Positions 7,989 to 61,812 of a stretch of DNA of 64,000 bases are shown in pieces. Made by a program: the position numbers and the translations under genes. Under the pieces are notes generated by a model. That model was given only the letters and a program-made list of their open reading frames with translations, had not been told where the DNA came from and did not search any database. The stretch's first letter is position 1; the number at the start of each line of letters is the position of its first letter. Location of the stretch: IMG/VR virus record IMGVR_UViG_3300034069_000634, positions 1 through 64,000 of that record. One strand, written 5' to 3'. Origin of the DNA: a virus.

Positions 7989-8852
7989 ATGGCAGGCGGT
8001 ATCCCGTTTTCGCAAGCGCTTCAGATCATCGGCGGCGTCCCGCTCCAGAAGGTCGGGAGTGTCTTTGCGGAGAAGCTCTCGATCACGAAGCGCCTCGACG
8101 GCGGCGCCGTCGGCGACCTGATGAAGAAGGTCATCGCGGACGGCAATCTCTCCTCGATCCTTCAGAACCCTCAGGCCGCGATCACGAACGCGATATCCGG
8201 GCAACTCGGCGGGCTTGCGTCGCAACTCGGTAGCATTCCCGGGGCCTCGGGTCTGATCTCATCGCTCACCGGATCGACTGGGCTCGGTTCCGTCCTGTCG
8301 ACGTTCCAGGCGGCCGGGAACACGCTCGCGGGTCTTACGGGTGACGGCTCGGGGTTCTTTACCATGCTGGCGCACGACGCGACGGCACAGATGGCCGGAG
8401 AGGCGATGCCGGCTTCGGCACTGACCTCGGTCGTCACAGCTCCGCTCACGGCCTCGGGCCTTCTCGGGTCGATCCAGACTGTTCTTCCCCAGATCGTCGG
8501 TCAGGTCGTCGCCGGCACGCTCGACCCGACGACCGCGCAAGCCTGGGTCGATGGGGTTGCCGCGCAACTCTCCGGCATCGTTACGGCATCGAACGACGCG
8601 CTCGCTTGGTCGGCCGCGAATCACGTCCGGATCGCCGCCGTCGCGACGATCGGCGGGGCGCTTGCCGTGCCACCGGTCTTCGATAGCGCCGGAAATCGCC
8701 AGGAAGGGGCCGCCACGGGCTTTCAGGGGGTTTTGCAGTCGCTGGTACAGCCGAGCGCCGTAGGGCCTCTGTCGGATGCCCTGAACGCGCTCACGGCCGC
8801 GAAGCGCTACGATCCGGTCGATCCGGACGATTACACGAGCCTGGAGGGGTGA
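7989..8852 (+). CDS. Gly/Ala/Ser-rich structural protein
   Basis: 287-aa ORF in the baseplate block. Its TGA overlaps the first bases of repeat element copy 1. Confidence 0.5.
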   Translation: MAGGIPFSQALQIIGGVPLQKVGSVFAEKLSITKRLDGGAVGDLMKKVIADGNLSSILQNPQAAITNAISGQLGGLASQLGSIPGASGLISSLTGSTGLGSVLSTFQAAGNTLAGLTGDGSGFFTMLAHDATAQMAGEAMPASALTSVVTAPLTASGLLGSIQTVLPQIVGQVVAGTLDPTTAQAWVDGVAAQLSGIVTASNDALAWSAANHVRIAAVATIGGALAVPPVFDSAGNRQEGAATGFQGVLQSLVQPSAVGPLSDALNALTAAKRYDPVDPDDYTSLEG

Positions 8853-9018
8853 GGTACGGGTTCCAATTTACGCCAGGGATCCTGAAACTCTCTGGTACAA
8901 AGTACCATTCCGCTCCTGGATTTATATTCTTATCTTCTTCTTCTAGAGAGAGAATATATGTAAGGATTAAAACCGGTAGAGTTTCAGGATCCCTGCCGTA
9001 AATTGGAACCCGTACCTC
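8851..9018 (+). repeat. long-stem AT-cored palindromic intergenic element, copy 1 (candidate structured RNA or MITE-like)
   Basis: The two arms pair over about 42 bp with one C/C mismatch. The core is about 75 nt and AT-rich, and there is no ORF. It shares conserved asymmetric blocks with the copies at 27670 and 50776. Confidence 0.85.
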
Positions 9019-9032
9019 GGGAGGAGATCGCG

Positions 9033-20661: not shown

Positions 20662-21757
20662 GAGCCTTCTCGCCGCCGCACTCGGGCTCCTCGTCTTCGC
20701 AGGCGCGCCGGCCGGTGCGTTCGTTCGGCAGAATGGGACAGGACAGCAGGGCATCGCCGGACCGACCGGGACTCCTGGCGCGAACGGCGCCGTCGGTGCT
20801 CAGGGTCCAATTGGCCCCGCCGGAAAGGATGGTCTTCCGGGTGCTCAGGGGCCAGCCGGATCGACAGGAGCGGCCGGCGCCAAGGGCGATACGGGTGCGA
20901 CCGGCACTCAGGGTCCGCAGGGCATTCCTGGCGCAAGTGGAGCAACGGGTGCGACTGGTCCGTCGGGTGCGACTGGTCCGTCGGGTGCAACGGGTTCGCA
21001 AGGAATAAAAGGCGATACGGGCGCGACCGGTGCGCAAGGAATTCAGGGCGCGAAAGGCGATACCGGATCCGCGGGGCCGCAGGGCGCCACAGGCTTGACA
21101 GGCGCGACCGGCCCGACTGGAGCAACGGGCGCGAAAGGCGATACGGGCGCAACGGGAAGCGTTGGCGCAACCGGCTCTCAGGGTGTGAAGGGCGACACGG
21201 GAGCAGCAGGAGCGACCGGACCGCAAGGGCCGATAGGAGCGACCGGCGCGACTGGCCTAACGGGTGCGACAGGCTCGGCCGGTCCTACAGGTCCGAAAGG
21301 CGATACCGGTGCGACAGGTGCCCAAGGGCCGATCGGCCTGACCGGAGCGACTGGTCCGACAGGAGCGACTGGTCCGACAGGAGCAACCGGTGCAACTGGT
21401 CTCCAAGGTGCTACGGGTGCAACTGGACCCGCCGGAATCGTCCCGACTTACGGCCCGAGCGGTCTTCGGACCGGCGCGAAGGTCTGGGTTGGATCGGTCA
21501 CAGCCTCGAACGGCCTCTGGTCCGTCTCGATCTCGTCCGCTGGATGCACGGCCGCGCCCTACAACGTTCAGGCCCAGGCCCAGGGCGTCGACGCGACCGC
21601 GGCCGGTGTCCGGATGGCGAACGTCTCGACGGTCACGACGACGACGATCTCCGGGAACGTCTCGCAGGCCGCAACGGTCTCGCTCCTCGGCGTGCTGTCG
21701 CTCAATCTCGCTACAACCGGAACGCCGACCGTCTTCATCGAGGCGTGGTGCAACTAG
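20645..21757 (+). CDS. secreted collagen-triple-helix-repeat protein
   Basis: 370 aa with a signal peptide, about 78 uninterrupted Gly-X-Y triplets, and a 106-aa globular C-terminus. Confidence 0.7.
20735..21436 (+). repeat. coding Gly-X-Y (9-nt periodic) tandem repeat
   Basis: GATGxTGxxG-type triplets run throughout. This region generates the long spurious ORFs seen in other frames. Confidence 0.8.
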
Positions 21758-25404: not shown

Positions 25405-27038
25405 GGTAGCGCCTCCAGCATCTCGCGATAATCGCCGATTCCGAGTTCCGATATACTCTTTTTTCTTTTCAGGTTCGCGAGAATCTTTCGGTCCCCGGAT
25501 CGGTTCGCGATCAGGTCGGTATGCGTGACGAGACCGCTCGCTCCGATCCGCTGGATCCGCTTCTCGCTCTGCCATCGATCGAGCGCTCGGTCGTCGTTCG
25601 AATAGTACAGGTCGGAGACGCACGCTCCCTGAAGGTTGAGGCCGGCGCCACCACATTGAGCATTTCCGACGAACACCTCGGCGCCCCGCGGCGAAAGGAA
25701 CGACTCGACGTTCTCGGCTCGCGCCTTGTCGGTCACGCCGCCGTGGTACTCGACGAACGTCCGTCCGATCCGGTCGAGGCGCTCGGCGATGAGCGCGATG
25801 TCCTGGCGGAACTTCGCCCAGATCACGATTTTCCGGCCGTCGTGCGCGTCGAGATACTCCTCCATCGCATTGAGCCGCGGGTTCTTGGCCGGCTCGACGA
25901 GGAGGTGAGCCCGACGATTCTCGTCGAGAACGAAGCCGTTCGAGATCTGTTGGATCTTAGAGGTCGCGACAGCCATGTTCGCGGCCGTAATCTCGGCACC
26001 GGATTCGAGTTCGGCGAGAAGCTCCTGTTTGAGCGCGCGCATCGCCGCGATCTGGCGCGGGTCGAGGTCGAAGGTCCACTCCTCGAAGACCGGCGGTAGG
26101 AGTCCGATGTCCTCCTGCGTCACCCGGAACGAGACCGGGTCGGTCAGACGCCGGAACTCGTCGATGTTGGTGTGGCCGACGACCTCCCGGCCCTCGTAAC
26201 CGCCCATCCGGCAGAAGCGTGCCCGGAAGGTCGTGACGTACTTGATCCCGAGGACCGACTCGTCGAGCCACTTCAACTGCGCCCATTCGTCGGTCAGGTC
26301 CTTGGCGATCGGCGTTCCGGTCAGGAGCGTTCGGACCGGGCTCGCGGCCTTCTTGCGGATCTCGTCCATCGCCCGCCAGCGCGCCGAGGCCGCGTTCTTG
26401 ATCTCCTGACTCTCGTCGGCGACGATGAACACCCGGCCGCGATGGGCAGTGACGAAGTCGAGCGCGGCGCGCTTGCCCTTCTCGGCCTTGGCGCCGTCAT
26501 AGTTGATCGCGAACACCTTCAGGCGCCCGTCCTTCACGAGAAGCGTCTCGGGAAGCCTGGACATCGGCCAGAAGGCACCGTCCCAGGCGTCGGAGCCGTA
26601 ATGCGCCGGGAATTGCTCGGCGATCCACTGCCGGTGCGGACCCTTCTTCGAGACGACGAGGACGGCGTCGATCCGGTTCTCGGCCCAGAGTTGCCCGGCC
26701 CGGTCGATCGCGACCTTCGACTTGCCCGTTCCCATGTCCATGAACAGGGCGAACCGGTCGAGCATCCGCCGGAGCGCCTCATCCTGATGCGGGAACGCCT
26801 TCGTCTTCGACACGTACGGCGGTCGGTCGGATTCGAACGCCTCGACCTCGGGCGTCGGATCAGGGGCCGCGACGCCGGGGAGCATCCGGATCCGTTCGAG
26901 GTTGTGGCCAGTCGGCTCGAAGTGCAGTCCTGCGGGGCTCCAGCGCCGACGGCCTTCGAGCCGGCCGGCGACGAACAGGACGTCGGGCGTCGCCGCGGTC
27001 CGGAGGAGAGCGGAGGTCTCGGTGAGTTCGAGGATCAT
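25401..27038 (-). CDS. SNF2-family helicase
   Basis: Motifs MDMGTGKSKVAI (Walker A) and DESQEIKN (DExx), plus C-terminal helicase motifs. The ATG is coupled to the deaminase stop. Confidence 0.8.
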   Translation of the reverse strand: MILELTETSALLRTAATPDVLFVAGRLEGRRRWSPAGLHFEPTGHNLERIRMLPGVAAPDPTPEVEAFESDRPPYVSKTKAFPHQDEALRRMLDRFALFMDMGTGKSKVAIDRAGQLWAENRIDAVLVVSKKGPHRQWIAEQFPAHYGSDAWDGAFWPMSRLPETLLVKDGRLKVFAINYDGAKAEKGKRAALDFVTAHRGRVFIVADESQEIKNAASARWRAMDEIRKKAASPVRTLLTGTPIAKDLTDEWAQLKWLDESVLGIKYVTTFRARFCRMGGYEGREVVGHTNIDEFRRLTDPVSFRVTQEDIGLLPPVFEEWTFDLDPRQIAAMRALKQELLAELESGAEITAANMAVATSKIQQISNGFVLDENRRAHLLVEPAKNPRLNAMEEYLDAHDGRKIVIWAKFRQDIALIAERLDRIGRTFVEYHGGVTDKARAENVESFLSPRGAEVFVGNAQCGGAGLNLQGACVSDLYYSNDDRALDRWQSEKRIQRIGASGLVTHTDLIANRSGDRKILANLKRKKSISELGIGDYREMLEALP

Positions 27039-27643
27039 CGACGACCTTCCGCCTTGTTGAGGTTTTCGATCATGCGGCCAGCGAAGACGTACCAAGTCCG
27101 AAGGGCCATATCCTCCGGCTTCAGGATCTCGCGGGATTCGATCGTCGAGCCCGATTCGGAAAGACGGCCGATCGCGTAATCATCGAAGCTCCAGCGCCGC
27201 GGCTCGCCTGAGACCTCGATGAATGCTGCCCCGTACGAAACTCCGGCCTCTCTGAGCATGTCAGACGCCGCGTCCCATTGCTCGTTGTCACCGCCGAACC
27301 GGCCAGGGCCGTATGTGAACCGAGAAACTCCTGCGGCGATCATCTCGCCAGCACAGGCCGAGCAGCACCGATGCGTGCAGTACACGGACGTGTTCTGCGT
27401 TCGGATCCCGTGATATGCGGCGGTAGCGATCAGGTTCCGCTCGGCGTGGTTCGCGAACAGGTACTTCCGTGGCCGCTCCCGCCGATCCGGGAGATCGCGG
27501 ACGCCAGGGGCCGGGCCGTTGAACGCCGTGAGCAGGACGCTCCGGCCGTTCGGCGCAACGAGAACGGCGCCGACCTTGGTCGCGTCCTTCGACTTCCGCG
27601 CGGCGTGCTCGGCGAAGCCGTACAGGTACTCGTCCCATTCCAT
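27035..27643 (-). CDS. dCMP (deoxycytidylate) deaminase
   Basis: HAERNLI (HAE) and CTHRCCSACAGEM (PCxxC-like) zinc motifs. Confidence 0.75.
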   Translation of the reverse strand: MEWDEYLYGFAEHAARKSKDATKVGAVLVAPNGRSVLLTAFNGPAPGVRDLPDRRERPRKYLFANHAERNLIATAAYHGIRTQNTSVYCTHRCCSACAGEMIAAGVSRFTYGPGRFGGDNEQWDAASDMLREAGVSYGAAFIEVSGEPRRWSFDDYAIGRLSESGSTIESREILKPEDMALRTWYVFAGRMIENLNKAEGRR

Positions 27644-27669
27644 TTTTCGTCTCCTTCGGTTCGGCTGGG

Positions 27670-27837
27670 CGAGGTACGGGTTCCAATTTACGGCAGGGAT
27701 CCTGAAACTCTCTGGCGTTTATATACGTATATATTCTTCTTCTTTATATATAAGATAAGAATATATATCCATAATAGAAAACGAACTCGCACCAGGGAGT
27801 TTCAGGATTCGAGGGGTAAATTGGAACCCGTACCTCG
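27670..27837 (-). repeat. long-stem AT-cored palindromic element, copy 2
   Basis: Read on the - strand, its 3' arm is 40/40 identical to copy 1. It lies between a stop codon (27851) and the AAGGAG SD of the deaminase gene. Confidence 0.85.
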
Positions 27838-27850
27838 GTCGGGTTGGGCG

Positions 27851-28072
27851 TCAGTCGCGAGGCTTTGCGCGTGGCAGAGGCTGTCGCCACTCGATAAGAT
27901 CCATGGCGCATCCTCGGCAGAAATCGCCCTCCTCAAAGATTCCCCTTTCGCTATGAGGGTTTGAGACGTTGCGAGTCGCCGTTTCGAGACGCATCCAGCC
28001 CTTCGGGAGATCAGGAGCCGGAAGGCGAGAAATCTCCCCGCAGCGGTCACATTCGAAGATTCGCGCCATCAC
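27851..28072 (-). CDS. zinc-finger protein
   Basis: 73 aa with CDRC..CRGC. Confidence 0.5.
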   Translation of the reverse strand: MMARIFECDRCGEISRLPAPDLPKGWMRLETATRNVSNPHSERGIFEEGDFCRGCAMDLIEWRQPLPRAKPRD

Positions 28073-32189: not shown

Positions 32190-33002
32190 CTAATACCCCG
32201 CCGCCTCCTTCAGACGGTCGAAGTAACTTTTCGGCAGGGTCAGGGTCACGGTGCCTTCGGTCTCATCGATATCAACCTCGGAGACGCGCAGCATTTCGCC
32301 GACGGCTTTCTTGAGCGAGGAGCGCGGCTCGCCACCCTCGACGTGCTTGGCTGTGGCGCGGGTCTTCCCGGCCTTCTTCGCGGTCTCGATGGCGCCAGCG
32401 AGATCGGACACGGCCTTGCCGGTGTCGCCCTCGGCCGCGCGAACGGTCTTCATCGCGAGGTCGGCAGAGACCTCGCCGGAGCGGACCATCGCCTTGACCT
32501 GTTCCGGGGCCGACTGAACTTCGAGCAACTGCACGACGCGCGTGCGGGTGATGCCGGTCTTCTTGGCGATCTCGCCCTCGTTCCAGCCGAGATCGAGGAG
32601 CTTCTTGAAGACCTTGCCCTTCTCGAACGGTGACAGCGGTTTGCTGGAGTTCCGGACGATCTGCGACAGGACGTGATCGGCCTCGGACGCGTACCGGGCC
32701 TCGGTCTGGACCGGGACGGTCTTGATCTCGGCTTTCAGGACGTCTCGGGCGTAGAGCGCTGCGGCGCGGCGACGGTGGCCGTTGGTGATGTAGGCGCGGC
32801 CGTCCTCCCAGATCGCCGTCATCGTCTCCTTCACGCCGACCTCGGCGATCGACTGCGCAAGCGCGAGATCGTCCTCGTCGTTCGGGTTGAAGTCGACGTC
32901 TCGGGCGTTCCAGCCCTGGCGGATGTGGAGGTCGTCGAGACTGATGCGGAACGTGTCCGAGCGGCCGGCGGCGATGCCCTGGATTCCGGTCTTCGTGGTC
33001 AT
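32190..33002 (-). CDS. parB: ParB-like nuclease-domain / partition-type protein
   Basis: ITNGHRRRAAAL (ParB box) plus an HTH (IAKKTGITRTRVVQLL). Confidence 0.7.
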   Translation of the reverse strand: MTTKTGIQGIAAGRSDTFRISLDDLHIRQGWNARDVDFNPNDEDDLALAQSIAEVGVKETMTAIWEDGRAYITNGHRRRAAALYARDVLKAEIKTVPVQTEARYASEADHVLSQIVRNSSKPLSPFEKGKVFKKLLDLGWNEGEIAKKTGITRTRVVQLLEVQSAPEQVKAMVRSGEVSADLAMKTVRAAEGDTGKAVSDLAGAIETAKKAGKTRATAKHVEGGEPRSSLKKAVGEMLRVSEVDIDETEGTVTLTLPKSYFDRLKEAAGY

Positions 33003-35807: not shown

Positions 35808-36097
35808 TACCGATTCCTCCTCGGCGCCGGCTGCGAGAAGTCCGGGATCCCGCCTTCTGTCTTCGACGGCGATGGCTCACGGACCGGGGCGTGTGGCGAT
35901 GTCGCTAAGCGGGCTTCCAAAGCGGCGCCCGTGTAGCGGGCGAAAGGGACGAAGACAGTTGAGACCGATCCGCCGTTTTCCCGCCATGCAACGATCGTTC
36001 GGTAGATCCATCCTCCAGGGACCGAGATTCGATCAATAAATGTCGAAACTTTGTCTCCAGGCTCGGCGTAGACAGGCATCCAAGGGCGTTCGCTCAT
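35807..36097 (-). CDS. hypothetical protein
   Basis: 96 aa, an internal start ATGA-coupled to the HNH gene. Confidence 0.45.
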   Translation of the reverse strand: MSERPWMPVYAEPGDKVSTFIDRISVPGGWIYRTIVAWRENGGSVSTVFVPFARYTGAALEARLATSPHAPVREPSPSKTEGGIPDFSQPAPRRNR

Positions 36098-36495
36098 CTC
36101 GTTCTCCTCTTCGGATAGCGCCGCTCGACGGCGCGCTTCAGGGCCGCGATGCCGCGGGTCTTCTTGGGATCGCCGAGCCGGACGGCACGGCGCTCGATCT
36201 TTCGGGCCTGATTCACCGTCTTCGGGACGACCTCGATGTGATCCGGGTTTACGCACAGCGAGAACTCGCACGTATGATCCCGGTCGTGCTCCGGCGGGCA
36301 ATCTCGGCCGCCGATCGCCTCACAGGCGAAGCGATGGGCGCGCACGGTCCGGTTGCCCAGACGGAAGCTCCCGTAGAACTTCCGGTTGCCCTTGCCGCGC
36401 GAGCGGGCGCCGGACCAGAACCAGCAACCGCTCGGGAGCTTCTCGACATAGCGGTAGAACCGCGCGACATCGGTGTCGGTGAAGGCGAGGGTCAT
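36094..36495 (-). CDS. HNH endonuclease (genome-typical GC)
   Basis: Contains HDRDHTCEFSLCVNPDHIEVVPKTVN. Confidence 0.7.
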   Translation of the reverse strand: MTLAFTDTDVARFYRYVEKLPSGCWFWSGARSRGKGNRKFYGSFRLGNRTVRAHRFACEAIGGRDCPPEHDRDHTCEFSLCVNPDHIEVVPKTVNQARKIERRAVRLGDPKKTRGIAALKRAVERRYPKRRTR

Positions 36496-36752: not shown

Positions 36753-37016
36753 TTATTTGGAGACGAGAGCCGACCGCGTCATCGCGATGTCTCCGAGTTG
36801 ACGGGCGGCCTGGACGAATATCGTGCGCCCATCGGCCGGACCCATGACCGCGACAGCGTCACGGATCATCTGTTCCGCGGTATCGAGGCTGGAGAGCTTC
36901 AAGGGGTTGCAAATGACATACTGACCGGTCGCCAATGCGAATTTGGTCGGACGCGTCAGAACCTCGGCGCCTTGCATGATCGGCTGAAAGGTCTTCGCGG
37001 CGTGATTGTCGGTCAT
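36753..37016 (-). CDS. hypothetical protein, single-gene unit
   Basis: 87 aa. Its promoter and leader are shared with 37094..37336. Confidence 0.5.
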   Translation of the reverse strand: MTDNHAAKTFQPIMQGAEVLTRPTKFALATGQYVICNPLKLSSLDTAEQMIRDAVAVMGPADGRTIFVQAARQLGDIAMTRSALVSK

Positions 37017-37059
37017 CGGTTCGGTTCCTTCTCTCCGGCTCGTCTCCGGCCGTGGCTCT

Positions 37060-37091
37060 ATATAGCGCCATCCCATCGGAAAAGAAAAGCG
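37060..37091 (-). promoter_or_regulatory. early promoter motif F: CGCTTTTCTTTT-N14-CTATAT
   Basis: Located 44 nt upstream of ATG 37016. Part of a duplicated 78-nt cassette. Confidence 0.6.
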
Positions 37092-37093
37092 TT

Positions 37094-37336
37094 TTATTCG
37101 ATGACATACTCAAGCTGGCCGGGAAACAGGTAGAACGAGCCGTTACCGTTCCGGACGCGGTAGCCTTCGCCGTCCGCCTTCAGGAGCCACTCGCCAGCCT
37201 TCTCGAAGCGGCGGTAGACCTTCCGGTCGAGAACCATGACGCGGAGAGCGGTCCGGACGACGAGGCGACCGCCGCCCGCGATGTAAGCCAGGGCCTCGTC
37301 GGTGGAGTTCGCGGGAACGGGGCTGGTGGTAGCCAT
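37094..37336 (-). CDS. hypothetical protein, single-gene unit
   Basis: 80 aa. This is the leftward-transcribed gene nearest the divergent promoter region. Confidence 0.5.
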   Translation of the reverse strand: MATTSPVPANSTDEALAYIAGGGRLVVRTALRVMVLDRKVYRRFEKAGEWLLKADGEGYRVRNGNGSFYLFPGQLEYVIE

Positions 37337-37379
37337 CGGATCAGTTCCTTCTCTCCGGCTCGTCTCCGGCCGTGGCTCT

Positions 37380-37411
37380 ATATAGCACCATCCCGACAAA
37401 AAAGAAAAGCG
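37380..37411 (-). promoter_or_regulatory. early promoter motif G: CGCTTTTCTTTT-N14-CTATAT
   Basis: Located 44 nt upstream of ATG 37336. It is divergent from motif I. Confidence 0.6.
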
Positions 37412-42417: not shown

Positions 42418-42432
42418 GAAAGGATACTTGTG

Positions 42433-43077
42433 ATGAAGTTTCCGGTCGACACAATTCCGATGCCGGGTGGATGCATCGCGCAAGAGAAGTTTTACACGAA
42501 ATGGAAAATCAAAACCGGAGAGCCATTAATAAAAGGTCGACCAAAAATAATGTATGAAGGCGAGCAATGGCTCTCCTATAGGCTTAGTTATCACCTCAAC
42601 ATCGCCTGCATCGATCCATATCCGGACCTGAAGTCGGATCAACTCGTCCTTCACAGTTGCGATAACGGATGGTGTATCGCGCCAGATCATCTTCGGCTCG
42701 GGACTCAGACCGAGAACATGATCGATAAATCGGCGCGCAACGAGAACTACCGGGCGACGCGAGGGAAATTCTCAGAAGATGCTTTGCAGCGGATTCGTGA
42801 GGCGAACACCCGACGGAAAGGCGAGAAGCGAAAAGAAGGCTTCTGGCAAACTGAAGAGGGGCGGGCGAAAGCGGGAGAGGCTTCAAAAGCGAGATGGAGC
42901 GATAAAGAAAAAAGAGCTGCAACTATACAAGCAATGAAAGAGCGAGCGGCTTCAGAGCCAGCAAGAAAGAAAATACTCGCCGCACAAAAAGCAAGATGGG
43001 ATAAAGAAGGGTCTAGAGAAAGAGCCTCGTTAAAACTAAAGAAATACTGGGAAGAGAAGCGAGGTAATCTGTCGTGA
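42433..43077 (+). CDS. HNH homing endonuclease (AT-rich)
   Basis: HSCDNGWCIAPDHLRLGTQTENM core. The tail is Lys/Glu-rich and repetitive. Confidence 0.75.
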   Translation: MKFPVDTIPMPGGCIAQEKFYTKWKIKTGEPLIKGRPKIMYEGEQWLSYRLSYHLNIACIDPYPDLKSDQLVLHSCDNGWCIAPDHLRLGTQTENMIDKSARNENYRATRGKFSEDALQRIREANTRRKGEKRKEGFWQTEEGRAKAGEASKARWSDKEKRAATIQAMKERAASEPARKKILAAQKARWDKEGSRERASLKLKKYWEEKRGNLS

Positions 43078-46159: not shown

Positions 46160-46228
46160 GACCTAGACCCCGGTTCGGGTTCGCTTTAGAACGTCAAAAC
46201 CGCGAAAGTTTCCGGTTAAGGATTTCCA

Positions 46229-49955: not shown

Positions 49956-50254
49956 CCGACAAGAAACAGATCCCCAAGGAGATCGCGCGAGCATTTGAGG
50001 CGTTCGATATCGCCTCATCGACGCTTGCCGGTCAGATCTGGATCGCACCGGGCGATGGTGACGAGGCGGACAGGACGCAGGCCGAGCTTTTCTCCGAGAT
50101 CCGTCGAGCCCTGATCGCCGCCTACGACGCAGGCTTCGCGGCCAGTGGCGAGGAGTGGAACGGCGAGTATCCGGACGCCGAGGACCGGAAGGAATCGTAC
50201 GAGCGGACGCGGGCCGAGTGGCTTGAGGATTTTGCGAAGGAGGGAAAGCGATGA
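49952..50254 (+). CDS. hypothetical acidic protein
   Basis: 100 aa, ATGA-coupled. Confidence 0.45.
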   Translation: MTDKKQIPKEIARAFEAFDIASSTLAGQIWIAPGDGDEADRTQAELFSEIRRALIAAYDAGFAASGEEWNGEYPDAEDRKESYERTRAEWLEDFAKEGKR

Positions 50255-50748
50255 AGGGTGTTTCAGGATACCGGCCGCCGAACGTGACGAAGCTGTCTGT
50301 TCGAAGCGCCGTTCAGAGAGAGCCGAATCTGCACAAGAGGAGGCTTTTCAAAAAGGAAAGCGACTTAAGATCCTGGGTCAAAGAGCGTACGCAGGATCCA
50401 TTCTGGATCGAGCCGACGCGCGGTTCGACGATCGGCGTGCCGGACGTCTACGCCCATGATAGCGGCGGAGTATGGGTCGAACTCAAACACGGAGACTGCA
50501 AGGACCGGCGCCTTCTCCAGTGGAAGCCGAGACCGGGGCAATACGACAAGATTAGAACGTTGCGAAATCGAGGGGCACGGGTCGGTGTAGCGATCGGTTT
50601 TGGCAATCTCATTTTCGTGACCAGCGACCCCGAGCTTTTCCGGGTCGGATGGGCGGAGATCCGGGCCGAGGATCTCATCGACGGGCGAGACCCGGATGCG
50701 TGGTCTCGCGTGATCGAAACGATCCTAAACGACTGTCAGAAAACATAA
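50251..50748 (+). CDS. VRR-NUC / PD-(D/E)xK-type nuclease (resolvase-like)
   Basis: ESDLRSWV..PDVYAH..GVWVELK pattern. Confidence 0.5.
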   Translation: MKGVSGYRPPNVTKLSVRSAVQREPNLHKRRLFKKESDLRSWVKERTQDPFWIEPTRGSTIGVPDVYAHDSGGVWVELKHGDCKDRRLLQWKPRPGQYDKIRTLRNRGARVGVAIGFGNLIFVTSDPELFRVGWAEIRAEDLIDGRDPDAWSRVIETILNDCQKT

Positions 50749-50775: not shown

Positions 50776-50935
50776 CGAGGTACCAGTTCCAATTTTTCGC
50801 ATGTTCCTGGGTACGGGAGCATTTTAGTCTCTGGATTCATATTCTTATCTTCTTCTTATAATAAGAAGATTATATATAAGGATTAAAACCGGGAGAGTCC
50901 CTGCCTCCGAGGGGTAAAAGTGAACTGGTACCTCG
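50776..50935 (+). repeat. long-stem AT-cored palindromic element, copy 3 (diverged)
   Basis: Core blocks are 26/27 and 16/16 identical to copy 1. The outer stem is retained through compensatory changes. Confidence 0.8.
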
Positions 50936-55044: not shown

Positions 55045-55497
55045 ATGCCCGGCGGCGGACCCCTTCGCTATCGCGTGGAATACTGCGATCTCCTCGAAGA
55101 GAAGATGGCGGAGGGATTCTCCATGACCGCGGTAGCCGGCCTGATCGGCGTCGCGAAGAACACCCTGTGCTACTGGGTGAACCATTACCCGGAGTTCAAG
55201 GAGGCGGTCGAGCGTGCCAAGTCGAAGCGCCTCCTCCACTGGGAGAAGATCGCGCTCGATATCGCCAAGAACGGCGGTCCGGGCTCGCGCGCGACGATGA
55301 CCACGTTCGGCCTCCGGAACGTCGGCATGGGCGAATGGAGCGACCTCCAGCGCCAGGAGATCTCCGGCCCCGACGGCGGTCCGATCAAGACCGAGACGAC
55401 GAGCGCGCGAGAGCTTCTCGCGGCACGGCTCGCTCGATTAGCACCTTCTTCAGAGTCTGGAGAAAACGAATCCGATTCTGAAGAAGATAACAAATGA
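55045..55497 (+). CDS. terS: terminase small subunit
   Basis: HTH (MTAVAGLIGVAKNTLCYWV..YPEFKEAVERAK). Its position upstream of TerL supports the call. Confidence 0.7.
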   Translation: MPGGGPLRYRVEYCDLLEEKMAEGFSMTAVAGLIGVAKNTLCYWVNHYPEFKEAVERAKSKRLLHWEKIALDIAKNGGPGSRATMTTFGLRNVGMGEWSDLQRQEISGPDGGPIKTETTSARELLAARLARLAPSSESGENESDSEEDNK

Positions 55498-56072
55498 CTT
55501 GTTTAATCGAAGGCTGTGAGAACAAGACTATCGCTCGTGGCCTTTGCTCTTCTCATTATCAAAGATTAAGAAAATACGGGTCCCCATTCGGGGGTCGTCC
55601 GACGTTTGTCGGAGAAATAAAGGAATATTTATATAATTTTGTTCTCCCGTACGAAGGAGAAGACTGCATCATTTGGCCCTATTCAATTCATAGAGGCCGA
55701 GCATATATGACTTTAAAAGGTAGATCCAATATAGCGGCCAGAATTATTTGTGAAGAGACTCAAGGATTTCCCCAAGATTCAAATTTAGATGCGGCTCATT
55801 CTTGCGGTAATAAAATATGTGTAAACCCAAATCACATTCGTTGGGCAACAAGAAAAGAAAATGAAGCCGATAAGATAATTCACGGTACAAAAAATCAAGG
55901 AGAAACGGTTTGGAATTCTAAACTGAGAAAAGAAGACGTTTTAAAAATATTGCAATTAAAGGGAGAAAAGACCGGAGTTGAAGTAGCTAGGTATTTTGGC
56001 CTTCATCCGACGACGGTTCGGATGATTTGGCGAGGCAAGAGATGGGCGCACTTATCTCAAATCGCTCCTTAG
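55494..56072 (+). CDS. HNH homing endonuclease (AT-rich) between terS and terL
   Basis: AAHSCGNKICVNPNHIRWATRKEN core. The ATGA overlaps the terS stop, and the 3' end overlaps the terL start. Confidence 0.75.
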   Translation: MTCLIEGCENKTIARGLCSSHYQRLRKYGSPFGGRPTFVGEIKEYLYNFVLPYEGEDCIIWPYSIHRGRAYMTLKGRSNIAARIICEETQGFPQDSNLDAAHSCGNKICVNPNHIRWATRKENEADKIIHGTKNQGETVWNSKLRKEDVLKILQLKGEKTGVEVARYFGLHPTTVRMIWRGKRWAHLSQIAP

Positions 56073-58225
56073 CTCAGAACGTCGCGGCGCTGTCGAAGGA
56101 AGATCGCGACCGGATTCTCGCGAAGCTGACGAAGGATCAGTCCGAGGAACTCCTCTATGACTGGAAATTCTGGGCGCGCCCGAATCAGCTGGCGCCGCCC
56201 GGCAACTGGATGACGTGGCTCGCGCTCGCCGGGCGCGGGTACGGCAAGACGGAGGCCGGCGCTCAGTGGGTCCGTGACGAGGTCGCGAAGGAGACTCATA
56301 CGATCGCCCTAGTCGCCGAGACCCAGAAGGATCTTGAAGAGGTCATGGTCCGGCGCCTGATCTCGATCTATCCGCCTGACGAGGCTCCGATCGTTCGATA
56401 CAAGCCCGTCCGCCTCGTGTGGCCGAACGGTTCCGTCGCGTACGGCTATAACGGGACCGAGCCGAATCAGCTTCGCGGTCCGCAGTTTTCGTTGGCCTGG
56501 GTCGACGAATTGGCGAAGTACCGCTACGCCCGAGAACTCTGGGACATGCTCATGTTCACGATGCGGTCGGGGACGAACCCGCGCGTGTTCGTGACGACGA
56601 CCCCTCGCCCGATCCCGGTCCTCCGCGAGATCATTAAGGATCCGACGACGACCGTTACGCACGGATCGACCTTCGACAACGCTGGAAACCTTCCTGCGCA
56701 ATTCCTTGAAAAGCTGAAGGCTCGATACGCCGGGACCCGTCTCGGCCGCCAGGAACTCAACGCCGAGATCCTTGATGACACCCCCGGCGCGCTCTGGGAC
56801 CGCGACGTGATCGAGAAGGCCAACGCGAAGCGCACGATCCCCGACATGAAGCGGGTCGTCGTTGCGGTCGATCCGTCCGGCACCCGCGGCGAGAACGAGG
56901 ATGACGGCGATGCGATCGGAATCGTCGTTGCGGGCAAGGGCGTGGATGGCCGTGCCTATGTGCTCGCCGACCGGACGTGCAAGCTGTCGCCGAACGGATG
57001 GGCTCGCCGCGCCGTCGACGCGTACCGGGTGTTCCAGGCCGACCGCATCGTCGCCGAGACGAACTACGGCGGCGCGATGGTCGAATCGACGATCCGCACG
57101 GCCGATCCGAAAGTACCCTATACCGAAGTCAAGGCGTCTCGGGGTAAGGTGATCCGCGCCGAACCAGTCGCCGCGCTTTACGAGCAGTGCGTCGCCGCCG
57201 GGACGTTGATCGCTTGCGAGCGTGGACAGATACCGATTGAGGCAGTTCGAGAAGGCGACCGTGTTTGGACGCGGGCGGGCTTAAAGCCCGTCCTTTGGGC
57301 GGGTCAAACCGGCGTGCAAAAAACCATTCAAATCGAAGCCTCTGGGAAAATTCTTAGGCTGACTGAAAATCATCCGGTTCTCACGACGGATGGATGGATC
57401 CATGCTGGACAACTTGCTCATAAAGAGCGTACCGTCTTCGCATGGCGATCAAATGCGAACTTTGTGAAGCGCCCATTAGCGTTCGAAAAGGTCGAACGCT
57501 CTGTCGATCGTGCGGCGCGCTTCGACGATGGCAGAACAACCCTCGACCGGCTAAGAGGGCTTTTGTCGAGTTTGAAGGGCTGCGCTACTATCGACAGCCA
57601 GACGGCTATTGGCGGGCCTCTCGCCATGGCGGGAATGAACTCCTGCATCGAGCCGTCTGGAAATCGCATCATAAAAAGCCGATCCCTGATGGATGGCATG
57701 TCCATCACAGAGACGAAGATCCAGGGAATAACGACCCTGAAAACTTACTTGCGATGCCTCACGGAGAACATTCTCGACACCATCACCCGAATGGCCTCAA
57801 GACCATTGGACGGACAAAGGTCTGCGCCGAATGCGAAAAAGATTTTTTCGCGGTTTGGGGTCGGCAATGGATATGCTCCGACGAGTGTCGACGTGTGCGA
57901 CACGCCCGAGAGGAGCGAGAGCGTCGAGCCCGTGTTCAACCTTCATGTTGCGGATCAGCATGAGTATGTCGCAAACGGCATTCTCGTGCATAACTGTCGC
58001 GTGAGCCACGTTCAGCCGTTCGACGAGCTTGAGGACGAGATGTGCCAGATGACGCGCGACGGGTTCACTGGTGAAGGATCGCCGAACCGCGTCGACGCGC
58101 TCGTCTGGGCGCTCACCGAACTCATGCTCGATGAGCAGAAGCGCGAGATCAGGTTTACCCCTGAGGCGATCCAGCGCCTCGCGCCGTCGAAGCCGAACCG
58201 CTTCGCGATAGGACGCCGCCGATGA
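56027..58225 (+). CDS. terL: terminase large subunit interrupted by an intein (exteins 56027..57187 + 57995..58225)
   Basis: LAGRGYGKTEAGAQWV Walker A, and AWVDELAK. The C-terminal ALYEQ|..|CRVSH is split by the intein. The start is ATG 56027 or 56042. Confidence 0.85.
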   Translation: MARQEMGALISNRSLAQNVAALSKEDRDRILAKLTKDQSEELLYDWKFWARPNQLAPPGNWMTWLALAGRGYGKTEAGAQWVRDEVAKETHTIALVAETQKDLEEVMVRRLISIYPPDEAPIVRYKPVRLVWPNGSVAYGYNGTEPNQLRGPQFSLAWVDELAKYRYARELWDMLMFTMRSGTNPRVFVTTTPRPIPVLREIIKDPTTTVTHGSTFDNAGNLPAQFLEKLKARYAGTRLGRQELNAEILDDTPGALWDRDVIEKANAKRTIPDMKRVVVAVDPSGTRGENEDDGDAIGIVVAGKGVDGRAYVLADRTCKLSPNGWARRAVDAYRVFQADRIVAETNYGGAMVESTIRTADPKVPYTEVKASRGKVIRAEPVAALYEQCVAAGTLIACERGQIPIEAVREGDRVWTRAGLKPVLWAGQTGVQKTIQIEASGKILRLTENHPVLTTDGWIHAGQLAHKERTVFAWRSNANFVKRPLAFEKVERSVDRAARFDDGRTTLDRLRGLLSSLKGCATIDSQTAIGGPLAMAGMNSCIEPSGNRIIKSRSLMDGMSITETKIQGITTLKTYLRCLTENILDTITRMASRPLDGQRSAPNAKKIFSRFGVGNGYAPTSVDVCDTPERSESVEPVFNLHVADQHEYVANGILVHNCRVSHVQPFDELEDEMCQMTRDGFTGEGSPNRVDALVWALTELMLDEQKREIRFTPEAIQRLAPSKPNRFAIGRRR
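57188..57994 (+). mobile_element. Hint-type intein (269 codons) in terL
   Basis: Cys1 (CVAAGTLIA), block B (LTENHPVLT), and a C-terminal GILVHN followed by Cys+1. Confidence 0.8.
57442..57963 (+). CDS. HNH endonuclease encoded in the -1 frame inside the intein
   Basis: 173 aa with two CxxC zinc ribbons and an HVHHRDEDPGNNDPENLLAMPHGEH core. The frame differs from terL. Confidence 0.7.
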   Translation: MAIKCELCEAPISVRKGRTLCRSCGALRRWQNNPRPAKRAFVEFEGLRYYRQPDGYWRASRHGGNELLHRAVWKSHHKKPIPDGWHVHHRDEDPGNNDPENLLAMPHGEHSRHHHPNGLKTIGRTKVCAECEKDFFAVWGRQWICSDECRRVRHAREERERRARVQPSCCGSA

Positions 58226-60904: not shown

Positions 60905-60990
60905 GATAGAAGCAAGACTATAAATAACAGGCCGACAAAGTGCGTCAACACCGTGCCGGCCCTAACCAAGCGAACAGGGTGAATGTTCAA

Positions 60991-61812
60991 ATGGCTGTAG
61001 AATACATTCCATACCAAGGGCCGGTTGTCACTCGAGAAAAAGCCCTATCTGAAAACCTCAAATGGTATTTTACGGGCGTCCCTTGCAAACATGGACATGT
61101 TTCGCTTCGAAGAGTGACAACGAGATCGTGTCAAGGGTGCGGTGAAGTTTTCTTACAAGAGCTTCGGAGTCACACAGCAAAAACAAAAGCGTTTAAGCCA
61201 CTTACCGCTCGACAAATCGCGCTTAACAATGGAGAATTAAGATATTTTACGGGGATTTCTTGTACAAATGGACATATATCCGAGAGGTTTGTAAATAGTC
61301 GAGCCTGTGTAGTTTGCATGGCTGAAAAATCAAAAGAGATTCCTAAGCAAATTAAATCCTCTTACAGCGCTAAACATCGATCTCTACATCCCGAAAAATG
61401 GAAAGAAACTCTTGAGCAATTTCGAATGCGTCATCGGATTCGGAGAAATGCCGAAGCACGAGAAGCCTATGCTAAAAATTCAGAAAAGGGTCGAGCCCGC
61501 ACAAAGCAATGGAGAGAACGCAATCCAGAAGGGGTTCGTGCTCATGCCATGACGCGATGGGCAAGAAAGAAGGGGTCATCAGGATCTTATACGGTAGAGG
61601 ATATCCGGTTCTTATTTGAGGCTCAGAAAGGACGCTGCATTAACTGCTTGGCTTCGTTGAATGAGGCGTATCACGTTGATCACGTACAACCATTGTCGCG
61701 GGGCGGGCTGAACGTTCGATCGAATCTTCAGTTATTATGCCCGCCATGCAACTTGAGCAAACACGCTCTCGACCCGTTCGAATGGGCTCAACGCAATGGC
61801 CGTCTCCTTTAA
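60991..61812 (+). CDS. HNH endonuclease with repeated Zn-finger modules (AT-rich)
   Basis: YFTG.PC..GH.S.R.V..R.C..C occurs twice. C-terminal HVDHVQPLSRGG..NLQLLCPPCNLSKH. Confidence 0.75.
   Translation: MAVEYIPYQGPVVTREKALSENLKWYFTGVPCKHGHVSLRRVTTRSCQGCGEVFLQELRSHTAKTKAFKPLTARQIALNNGELRYFTGISCTNGHISERFVNSRACVVCMAEKSKEIPKQIKSSYSAKHRSLHPEKWKETLEQFRMRHRIRRNAEAREAYAKNSEKGRARTKQWRERNPEGVRAHAMTRWARKKGSSGSYTVEDIRFLFEAQKGRCINCLASLNEAYHVDHVQPLSRGGLNVRSNLQLLCPPCNLSKHALDPFEWAQRNGRLL

Follow-up and report, generated by a model that had tools for sequence, protein, structure and literature searches.

A palindromic intergenic element shared among uncultured tailed phages

Introduction

Miniature inverted-repeat transposable elements, or MITEs, seldom occur in viruses, and where they are found (vMITEs), they are usually shared with the hosts (PMC11602168). 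In this work, we describe a family of palindromic elements that is present in three copies in a 64,000-nt stretch of viral DNA (IMG/VR record IMGVR_UViG_3300034069_000634, positions 1 to 64,000, hereafter the window) and recurs in related metagenomic phages. An earlier reading of the window, referred to as the original prediction, had drawn attention to copy 2 at 27670–27837. The element resembles a MITE in being short, non-coding, and AT-rich inside, with terminal inverted repeats (arms of 41–58 nt, with a complementarity of 87–98% for copies 1 and 2 as well as the relatives). It is also intergenic, multi-copy, and sharp-ended, and shows presence/absence polymorphism and a near-identical copy in a divergent genome. 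However, its arms of 40–58 bp are wholly unlike between related phages and nevertheless complementary, neither a transposase nor an autonomous partner was found, and 185,579 host-type genomes contained 0 copies. In further contrast to a MITE, it keeps three sites and one orientation, and its target duplication is inconsistent.

Similar hairpins are known from bacterial chromosomes. REPINs are paired REP sequences that form hairpins and are mobilised by RAYT transposases; they are chromosomal, reach tens to hundreds of copies, are much shorter, and are tied to a RAYT gene. They were reportedly described by Bertels and Rainey in 2011. Our element shares with them a long hairpin-forming inverted pair, the intergenic position within operons, compensatory pairing, and homogeneity within a genome. 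It differs in its three copies and its absence from the bacterial genomes scanned, and no RAYT or IS200/IS605-type gene was found among the window's open reading frames (ORFs) that were scanned. The Correia elements of Neisseria and the ERIC elements are imperfect palindromes of 100–170 bp that are co-transcribed, cut by RNase III, and located near start codons, and our element is likewise palindromic, of that size, and near start codons. Correia elements are chromosomal and high-copy, with 26-bp inverted repeats, a TA duplication, and a site for the integration host factor (IHF). Here, on the other hand, the IHF consensus WATCAANNNNTTR was found in 0 of 10 copies, and no TA duplication was present in the flanks. 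Lastly, herpesvirus origins of the oriL/oriS type combine an AT-rich centre and long inverted arms with few copies and a position beside replication genes. By analogy, the architecture of our element and the location of its copy 3 would fit such an origin, but its extra copies lie inside operons in a fixed transcriptional orientation.

Within phages, the PeSLs of T4-like phages are promoter–terminator stem-loops that mediate modular gene shuffling; their defining features are an early promoter and a short terminator hairpin, and they number in the dozens (PMC2839356, PMC4122927). By analogy, they are the closest example from phages of intergenic stem-loops that recur at points of gene shuffling. 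Our element is likewise phage-borne and intergenic, and it is found at points where small genes come and go (a 67-aa ORF at site 1 and a 73-aa indel). A role as a substrate for homologous exchange between genomes is plausible, its part in mediating such exchange being suggested by location. In contrast to the PeSLs, it carries no promoter or terminator consensus, its stems exceed theirs four- to fivefold in length, and only three copies are present. We liken the element to MITEs, REPINs, and PeSLs in behaviour and file it in none of these families.

Results and discussion

Structure of copy 2 and its counterparts in the window

The explanation that we consider best, at a probability of about one half, is that the copies form a phage-restricted, non-coding palindromic family with MITE-, REPIN-, or PeSL-like, non-autonomous mobile or recombining behaviour, that they were homogenised by gene conversion, and that copy 2 is a mosaic. 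Members of the family are 155–170 bp long and consist of 40–58-bp inverted arms around an AT-rich core; no conserved ORF was found in the copies. As a discrete unit, the element ends sharply on both sides (CGAGGTAC ... GTACCTCG), and the identity between copies 1 and 2 begins at (C/T)GAGGTAC and ends at GTACCTCG. The arms are GC-rich, and the core (20–36% GC) is itself a quasi-palindrome. In every full-length copy, read in gene orientation, the 5' half of the core is pyrimidine-rich (0.55–0.79) and the 3' half purine-rich, and the orientation of the element is defined because of this asymmetry. The family profile scored 122.1 bits on the gene strand and 58.9 on the opposite strand for copy 1, 126.9 and 73.6 for copy 2, and 119.5 and 48.5 for copy 3. 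The orientation assigned to the copies in the original prediction is thus not arbitrary, as the gene strand scored 50–70 bits higher and the core is asymmetric.

Copy 2 lies on the − strand (27837..27670), as had been proposed, and is 168 nt long. It opens with CGAGGTACGGGTTCCAATTTACCCCTCGAATCCTGAAACTCCCTGG, closes with CCAGAGAGTTTCAGGATCCCTGCCGTAAATTGGAACCCGTACCTCG, and comprises a 46-nt 5' arm (27792–27837), a 76-nt AT-rich core (27716–27791, 26% GC, quasi-palindromic, pyrimidine-rich in its 5' half and purine-rich in its 3' half), and a 46-nt 3' arm (27670–27715). Copy 1 (8850–9019, + strand) has 41-nt arms with a complementarity of 98%, and copy 3 (50776–50935, + strand) occupies the most deeply conserved site. 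All three are homologous and co-oriented with the flanking genes, and copy 2 is thus inverted within the genome, in agreement with the earlier reading. The 3' arm of copy 2, previously described as 40/40 identical to that of copy 1, in fact matches it over 42/42 positions (27670–27711 against 8978–9019). A 40-mer from this arm has three matches in the window at up to 3 mismatches, with 0 expected from 100 shuffles.

The 5' arm of copy 2, in turn, carries the patch ACCCCTCGAATCC at 27817..27805, where copy 1 has ACGCCAGGGATCC. The four clustered substitutions (27815, 27812, 27811, and 27809) open an internal loop in the predicted fold, and arm complementarity amounts to 87% over 46 nt, compared to 98% in copy 1; both the cluster and the loop had been foreseen. 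It was also correctly noted that the substituted string recurs in another copy: the reverse complement of TTTACCCCTCG is found in the 3' arm of copy 3 as CGAGGGGTAAA, and three of the four derived bases are common to both. In the arms of copy 3, perfect pairing is left in the outer 14 bp only, where a compensated GG-to-CA/CC-to-TG change is present.

The identity between the copies is unevenly distributed. Copies 1 and 2 share 86% and 100% of their arms and 67% of the core, whereas copies 1 and 3 share 72% of the core and 66–67% of the arms, without an arm/core contrast. The core of copy 3 is therefore nearer to that of copy 1 than the core of copy 2 is. We propose that gene conversion or template switching would keep the copies alike, acting among paralogues, from one arm of a copy to the other, and among co-infecting phages. 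Copy 2 would then be a conversion mosaic, the 3' arm of which may recently have been replaced from copy 1 or passed on to it. The 5' arm of copy 2 would keep an older allele of a hypervariable segment, the complement of which may survive in the 3' arm of copy 3.

Arm co-variation across the family

With regards to the whole family, the arm sequences are unlike between phages, with GTTCCAATTTACGCCAGGGATCCTGAAACTC in the window, GTTCACTTTTTTGGGTCAAAAGTGGGTAC in a 65.7-kb phage, CCAGTACGGATTTACCCCCTGGGATCC in contig L031, and AATCGCCCCCAGGATCCTGGGAG in contig L029. Between genomes, the identity of the 3' arm is 47–67%. When the arms alone were aligned for eight full-length copies (four phages), 88.6% of the cells were paired and 30 of the 46 pairs had changes on both sides, a result reached by 0 of 500 shuffles. 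When the register was slid by one column, pairing fell to 47–48%. Arm positions 21 to 34, approximately, are the most variable part across the family, yet they are complementary in all full-length copies except copies 2 and 3. This segment, which includes the disputed patch, is paired in copy 1, in the three copies of the 65.7-kb relative, and in V_si, L031, and L041. The asymmetry of copy 2 is read as a conversion tract because of the mosaic identities of arms and core together with this co-variation in the family.

The original prediction had interpreted the same asymmetry differently, namely as a conserved 3' arm that is recognised strand-specifically, read as a single strand on the gene strand, while the partner arm drifts. 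The contrast in copy 2 between 42/42 identical positions and four substitutions in the 5' arm speaks for this model, and so does the fact that the arms of copy 3 are unequal too. However, both arms change together across the phages, a pattern that the prediction itself had named as contrary to its argument. The idea of a conserved strand with a freely varying partner did not hold, given that the 3' arm is as divergent between genomes as stated above and that the disputed segment is still paired in copy 1 and in the copies of the relatives. Strand-specific recognition fared no better: copy 3 carries the variant string in its 3' arm and not in its 5' arm, and copy 2 folds better as antisense RNA (−93.2 kcal/mol) than as sense RNA (−81.2 kcal/mol).

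Occupied and empty sites in related phages

Relatives were recovered from metagenomic phages by a pattern of the termini and by searches with the flanking proteins, for site 3 via a primase query. The 65.7-kb contig IMGVR_UViG_3300017684_000001 has the element at all three corresponding sites, which are located before its sheath-initiator gene (L005), before its dCMP deaminase gene (L004), and after its VRR-NUC gene (L034). The site before the sheath-initiator gene (site 1) is occupied in L005, L006, L031, L029, L032, L028, L030, and L043, and the site after the VRR-NUC gene (site 3) in L034, L041/42, L040, and L038. Six independent contigs from Logan start within the element, namely L028, L029, L030, L032, L043, and L033 (the last from a near-duplicate of the window phage), which indicates that assemblies break there.

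Sequence turnover at these sites does not follow that of the neighbouring genes. The two secondary copies of the 65.7-kb phage, U_si and U_dcd, share 99% identity. When copies at one and the same site are compared between genomes, in contrast, the identity is 63% (copy 1 and U_si), 65% (copy 2 and U_dcd), and 66% (copy 3 and U_c3), compared to a nucleotide identity of 76% for the adjacent gene. The opposite is found in L032, where the right-hand 105 nt of the element, the part contained in this contig, are 98% identical to copy 1 and the adjacent gene is 75% identical. This similarity stops exactly at the element end GTACCTCGG, and the flanks diverge at once. At the level of sequence comparison, the copies are in concerted evolution.

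Site 3 is the spacer after the VRR-NUC gene at the end of the replication module. In the window, this gene (50251–50748, + strand) is located immediately upstream of copy 3 and encodes a 165-aa nuclease of the VRR-NUC-type PD-(D/E)XK group. Its counterparts are L034:6995–7414, L040:7175–7729, L041:2983–3489, and L038:5558–5983. The nuclease has an invariant D...E-x-K motif and matches the structure of a stand-alone VRR-NUC protein (PDB 4QBO, E = 1.6e-6). In distant phages, with a primase that is about 60–65% identical and a GC content of 47–59%, a palindrome directly follows the orthologous nuclease gene (L038, L040, and L041/42); the one in L041/42 matches the family profile (E = 1.3e-16) in the same orientation. 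In every case, a long palindrome follows the VRR-NUC gene within 8–90 nt, even where its sequence is unrecognisably different, and the genes downstream of site 3 differ between phages. Judged by this distribution, site 3 is the oldest site. Sites 1 and 2 are, on the same comparison, later insertions in a GC-rich subclade, placed between a stop codon and the next ribosome-binding site.

Empty sites were found as well. At site 1, the genes overlap in L007/L008, and L044 has a stop codon followed by AG and ATG. In L026/27, a 67-aa ORF takes the place of the element at site 1, and L026 is placed within the clade of element carriers. A 73-aa Cys-rich ORF (27851–28072, − strand) is located upstream of copy 2, with its TGA stop at 27853–27851; it has no counterpart at the same position in the 65.7-kb relative, which makes it a gene indel adjoining copy 2. 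These observations suggest that element sites are hot spots for the gain and loss of small genes. Both small ORFs next to element sites, L026:9798–10001 (67 aa) and 27851–28072 (−) of the window (73 aa), are Cys-rich and zinc-ribbon-like.

The placement of copy 2 had been described as precise, 13 nt after a stop codon and directly before the Shine–Dalgarno (SD) sequence AAGGAG. The first part is correct, as the left spacer (27838–27850, − strand) separates copy 2 from the stop codon at 27851–27853 by 13 nt. The second part is not, since a 13-nt spacer (27669–27657) intervenes before the AAGGAG (27651–27656) in the interval 27651–27669 (−). The SD sequence belongs to the dCMP deaminase gene (27035–27643, − strand, ATG at 27643) downstream of copy 2. 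Around this copy, an imperfect direct repeat of approximately 17–19 nt was detected (CGCCCAACCCGA-CCGA-GG versus CGCCCAGCC-GAACCGAAGG; score 10.5, p about 0.02), formed by the left spacer and first arm bases against the right-hand spacer, and it may possibly represent a target duplication. At site 1, the first three bases of copy 1, TGA (8850–8852), are the stop codon of the upstream tail gene, and the copy is directly followed by GGAGGAG and then by the start codon of the sheath-initiator gene (9033).

Outside of this group, the searches returned no copy. When the species genomes of 185,579 bacteria and archaea were scanned, neither the termini pattern nor the core pattern detected one. Cultured phages and plasmids gave no match in blastn, and the exact arm 19-mer was absent from viral contigs. 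The element therefore appears confined to a small group of uncultured phages of one lineage. The sole match to a degenerate 17-mer, in L001, was rejected as an AT-rich chance match. Palindromes in the haloarchaeal-looking contigs L018/19/23/24 and in the AT-rich L021 were discarded as unrelated, with different cores and no protein similarity to the window. L018, L019, L023, and L024 are metagenome contigs of about 1.8 kb with acidic proteins; in each, a palindrome of 156 nt shares its 13-nt termini (GAGGTACTGGTTC...) with the element and precedes tandem repeats of the GGAACACCGG type, and this match of the termini is probably coincidental.

Mobility, recombination, and the points against them

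Several hallmarks of a mobile element are present, namely sharp ends, several copies, filled and empty sites, and a near-identical copy in a divergent genome. Several observations weigh against a mobile or recombining element, however. No transposase was detected among the roughly 40 ORFs of the window that were scanned, and neither an autonomous partner nor a copy in a host genome was found. Target-site duplications do not recur consistently: beside the copy 2 repeat, U_si reached a p of about 0.01 in G/A-rich sequence, the other seven copies were not significant, and the test at the copy 1 site is confounded by the SD-like GGAGG. Each genome has only three copies, which all point the same way with respect to transcription, and phages that are about 76% identical keep the three sites. 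Fixed orientation and stable sites are accounted for by a selected cis-acting function no less well than by selfish spread. Furthermore, if the arms were classical terminal inverted repeats to which a transposase binds, their sequences would be conserved between phages, and they are not. Co-variation of the arms, moreover, does not by itself tell selection for pairing from arm-to-arm conversion.

How such an insertion could be tolerated is suggested by its surroundings. The copies are probably co-transcribed as a long RNA hairpin, because they are located inside co-directional gene strings without a promoter or terminator signature. Such a hairpin would bring the upstream stop codon and the downstream SD sequence together. 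As modelled, stems of this length would be substrates of RNase III, which needs at least about 20 bp of double-stranded RNA; the predicted sense-strand stems range from 22 + 12 bp in copy 2 to more than 40 bp in copy 1.

Alternative explanations

The strongest alternative, which we regard as possible and hold only tentatively, is a selected cis-acting RNA. In this case, the copies would be hairpins with a stem of about 40–75 bp in a polycistronic mRNA and would act as an RNase III site, a 3'-end stabiliser, or an attenuator. The ancestral site would mark the end of the replication operon, and the spread copies would adjust the expression of baseplate and nucleotide-metabolism genes. The predicted RNA hairpins are very stable, with −95.7 kcal/mol (z = −10.6) for copy 1, −81.2 kcal/mol (z = −11.7) for copy 2, and −66.4 kcal/mol (z = −6.4) for copy 3. 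All copies are in gene orientation inside co-directional strings, right beside an SD sequence, and the pyrimidine-to-purine asymmetry of the core is constant relative to transcription. A hairpin has also been kept after the VRR-NUC gene over deep divergence despite the turnover of its sequence. Yet the folding itself does not single out the sense strand. As DNA, copy 2 still reaches −47.2 kcal/mol (z = −11.2), its antisense RNA is the more stable one, and the sense and antisense energies are about equal, with no consistent difference among the copies. G:U pairs slightly favour the sense strand (21 versus 11 over independent copies), a weak bias that is not significant.

Searches for known RNA signals did not strengthen this explanation. 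Rfam gave no match at the gathering threshold over the window; in permissive mode, only generic long-hairpin matches were returned, namely plant miRNA-precursor models with 21–37 bits against thresholds of 100–230. A search for tRNA and tmRNA found none. A sigma-70-type promoter scan of all three copy regions, lenient consensus included, found no −35/−10 pair. The scan for intrinsic terminators gave no site at copies 1 and 2 and two short internal sites in copy 3 (2 versus 0.8 expected from shuffles), and the long element hairpin followed by a T run was not found at any of the three copies. The flanks directly after the stem read CCCAGCC, GGAGGAG, and CCTCGAC, without a U tract. Moreover, the evidence from orientation comprises just two independent secondary insertions, and an RNA function leaves both the 98% identical element beside a 75% identical gene and the empty sites unexplained.

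A replication or recombination site at the DNA level is a more doubtful alternative. Here, the AT-centred palindrome would act as a cruciform or as folded single-stranded DNA, with the role of an origin or of a site where breaks or entry occur in recombination-dependent replication. The neighbouring VRR-NUC nuclease, which is of the Holliday-junction-resolvase type, might cut it, and the breaks would drive gene conversion. The ancestral copy is tightly linked to a primase gene followed by a VRR-NUC gene in at least five lineages, and the match of the nuclease to 4QBO with its invariant motif is in line with such an activity. The palindrome is symmetric at the DNA level, its centre has 20–36% GC in a 62% GC genome, and the outer-arm motif GG(T/C)TCC(A)/TGGAACC recurs in nearly all variants. 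The spacing of the copies, 18.8 kb and 23.1 kb in a genome of roughly 66–68 kb, was likewise counted in its favour. However, the cumulative GC skew has no turning point at any copy, copy 3 has lost most of its arm pairing, and a DNA site would not need extra copies wedged between stop codon and SD sequence in a fixed transcriptional orientation. Even more speculatively, the palindromes may be recognised by shape, as sites of the always-linked VRR-NUC nuclease or of a primase-helicase, and serve as origins or programmed breaks for recombination-dependent replication. If this were true, the breaks would explain how copies overwrite one another and jump between co-infecting phages without a transposase. 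Another protein weighed as a binder of the palindrome was a 270-aa protein with a ParB-type helix-turn-helix domain (32190–33002, − strand), but nothing links the two.

It is improbable that the element is a composite promoter cassette, in which a TATATAA-type −10 box in the AT-rich core would drive the downstream genes and the arms would act as operator or insulator. TATATA(A) is indeed found 10–20 nt before the right arm in most variants, and in L040 and L041 the element at the ancestral site precedes terS by about 75 nt, a position at which a late promoter would be expected. However, besides the missing −35/−10 pair, the spacing from the pyrimidine tract to the TATA box varies from 11 to more than 30 nt, and the motif of the phage itself (CGCTTTTCTTTT-N14–16-TATA) is different and absent from the element. 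This promoter-like motif consists of an A-tract, CGCTTTTCTTTT, 14–16 nt, and (C)TATA(T/C)A, and occurs in seven copies on the − strand (at approximately 24584, 29264, 31918, 33060, 36741, 37081, and 37401) upstream of genes in a leftward, early-looking block. It probably represents an early promoter class of the window phage that is distinct from the palindromic element. One such motif and a small ORF are contained in a 320-nt tandem duplication (37014–37091 and 37334–37411; 78 nt, 91% identity).

The least probable explanation by far is the strand-read 3' arm of the original prediction, given the co-variation reported above. Three further candidates were rejected: a cos or pac site (the element occurs three times, and none of its copies coincides with an end of the 65.7-kb relative contig), a resemblance to IS1 ends (13/23, post hoc, and unconvincing), and CRISPR-repeat mimicry (the GTT...CTGAAAC of the copy 1 arm is absent from the other arm variants).

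Genomic setting

The window, with a GC content of approximately 62%, belongs to a tailed phage of about 66–68 kb, an uncultured myovirus. Its proteins include a sheath initiator, baseplate proteins, SNF2 and UvrD helicases, a DnaE-type polymerase, and a DUF5906 primase, and further a terminase with an intein, a portal, structural proteins of the Pam3/E217/XM1 type, and four HNH endonucleases. No close relative was found among cultured phages, as the identity was at most 48% for the baseplate protein and at most 32% over part of the length for the primase. A possible remnant of the element was detected at 46172–46218 (− strand) as an intergenic match to the right-arm part. It is located in the spacer between the genes of the DnaE-like polymerase and a C5 methylase and is marginal (profile E = 0.047); it could be a decayed half-copy in opposite orientation, although this assignment from sequence is uncertain.

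Other repeats and insertions are present in this genome. The large terminase gene (56027–58225, + strand) has a Hint/intein insertion at about aa 388–656, and an HNH endonuclease ORF (55494–56072, + strand) is located between the small and large terminase genes. Together with the HNH-type ORFs at 36094–36495 (−), 42430–43077 (+), and 60940–61812 (+), it makes four, none of which adjoins a palindrome; with four scattered HNH ORFs, the phage is rich in selfish elements. A structural gene at approximately 20800–21440 (+), which probably encodes a tail fibre, contains long 9-nt-periodic G-X-Y (collagen-like) coding repeats.

Conclusion

The element family is real and, as a feature of an uncultured phage lineage, moderately unusual, and its observation is far beyond chance. 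Transposon-like repeats are rare in phage genomes, and the reported ones are usually borrowed from the host, whereas this family looks different. Its distinctive features are that it appears confined to one uncultured lineage, that it stays at the same three addresses despite repeated replacement of its sequence, that very long arms are kept by compensated change, and that the oldest copy is tied to the gene of a structure-specific nuclease. In practical terms, short-read assemblies of these phages are interrupted by the element, at places that can be predicted. If the family is functional, it points to an undescribed signal for RNA processing or for replication and recombination. If it is selfish, it shows how non-coding DNA can persist and move in packed lytic genomes, as a self-folding unit between a stop codon and a ribosome-binding site.

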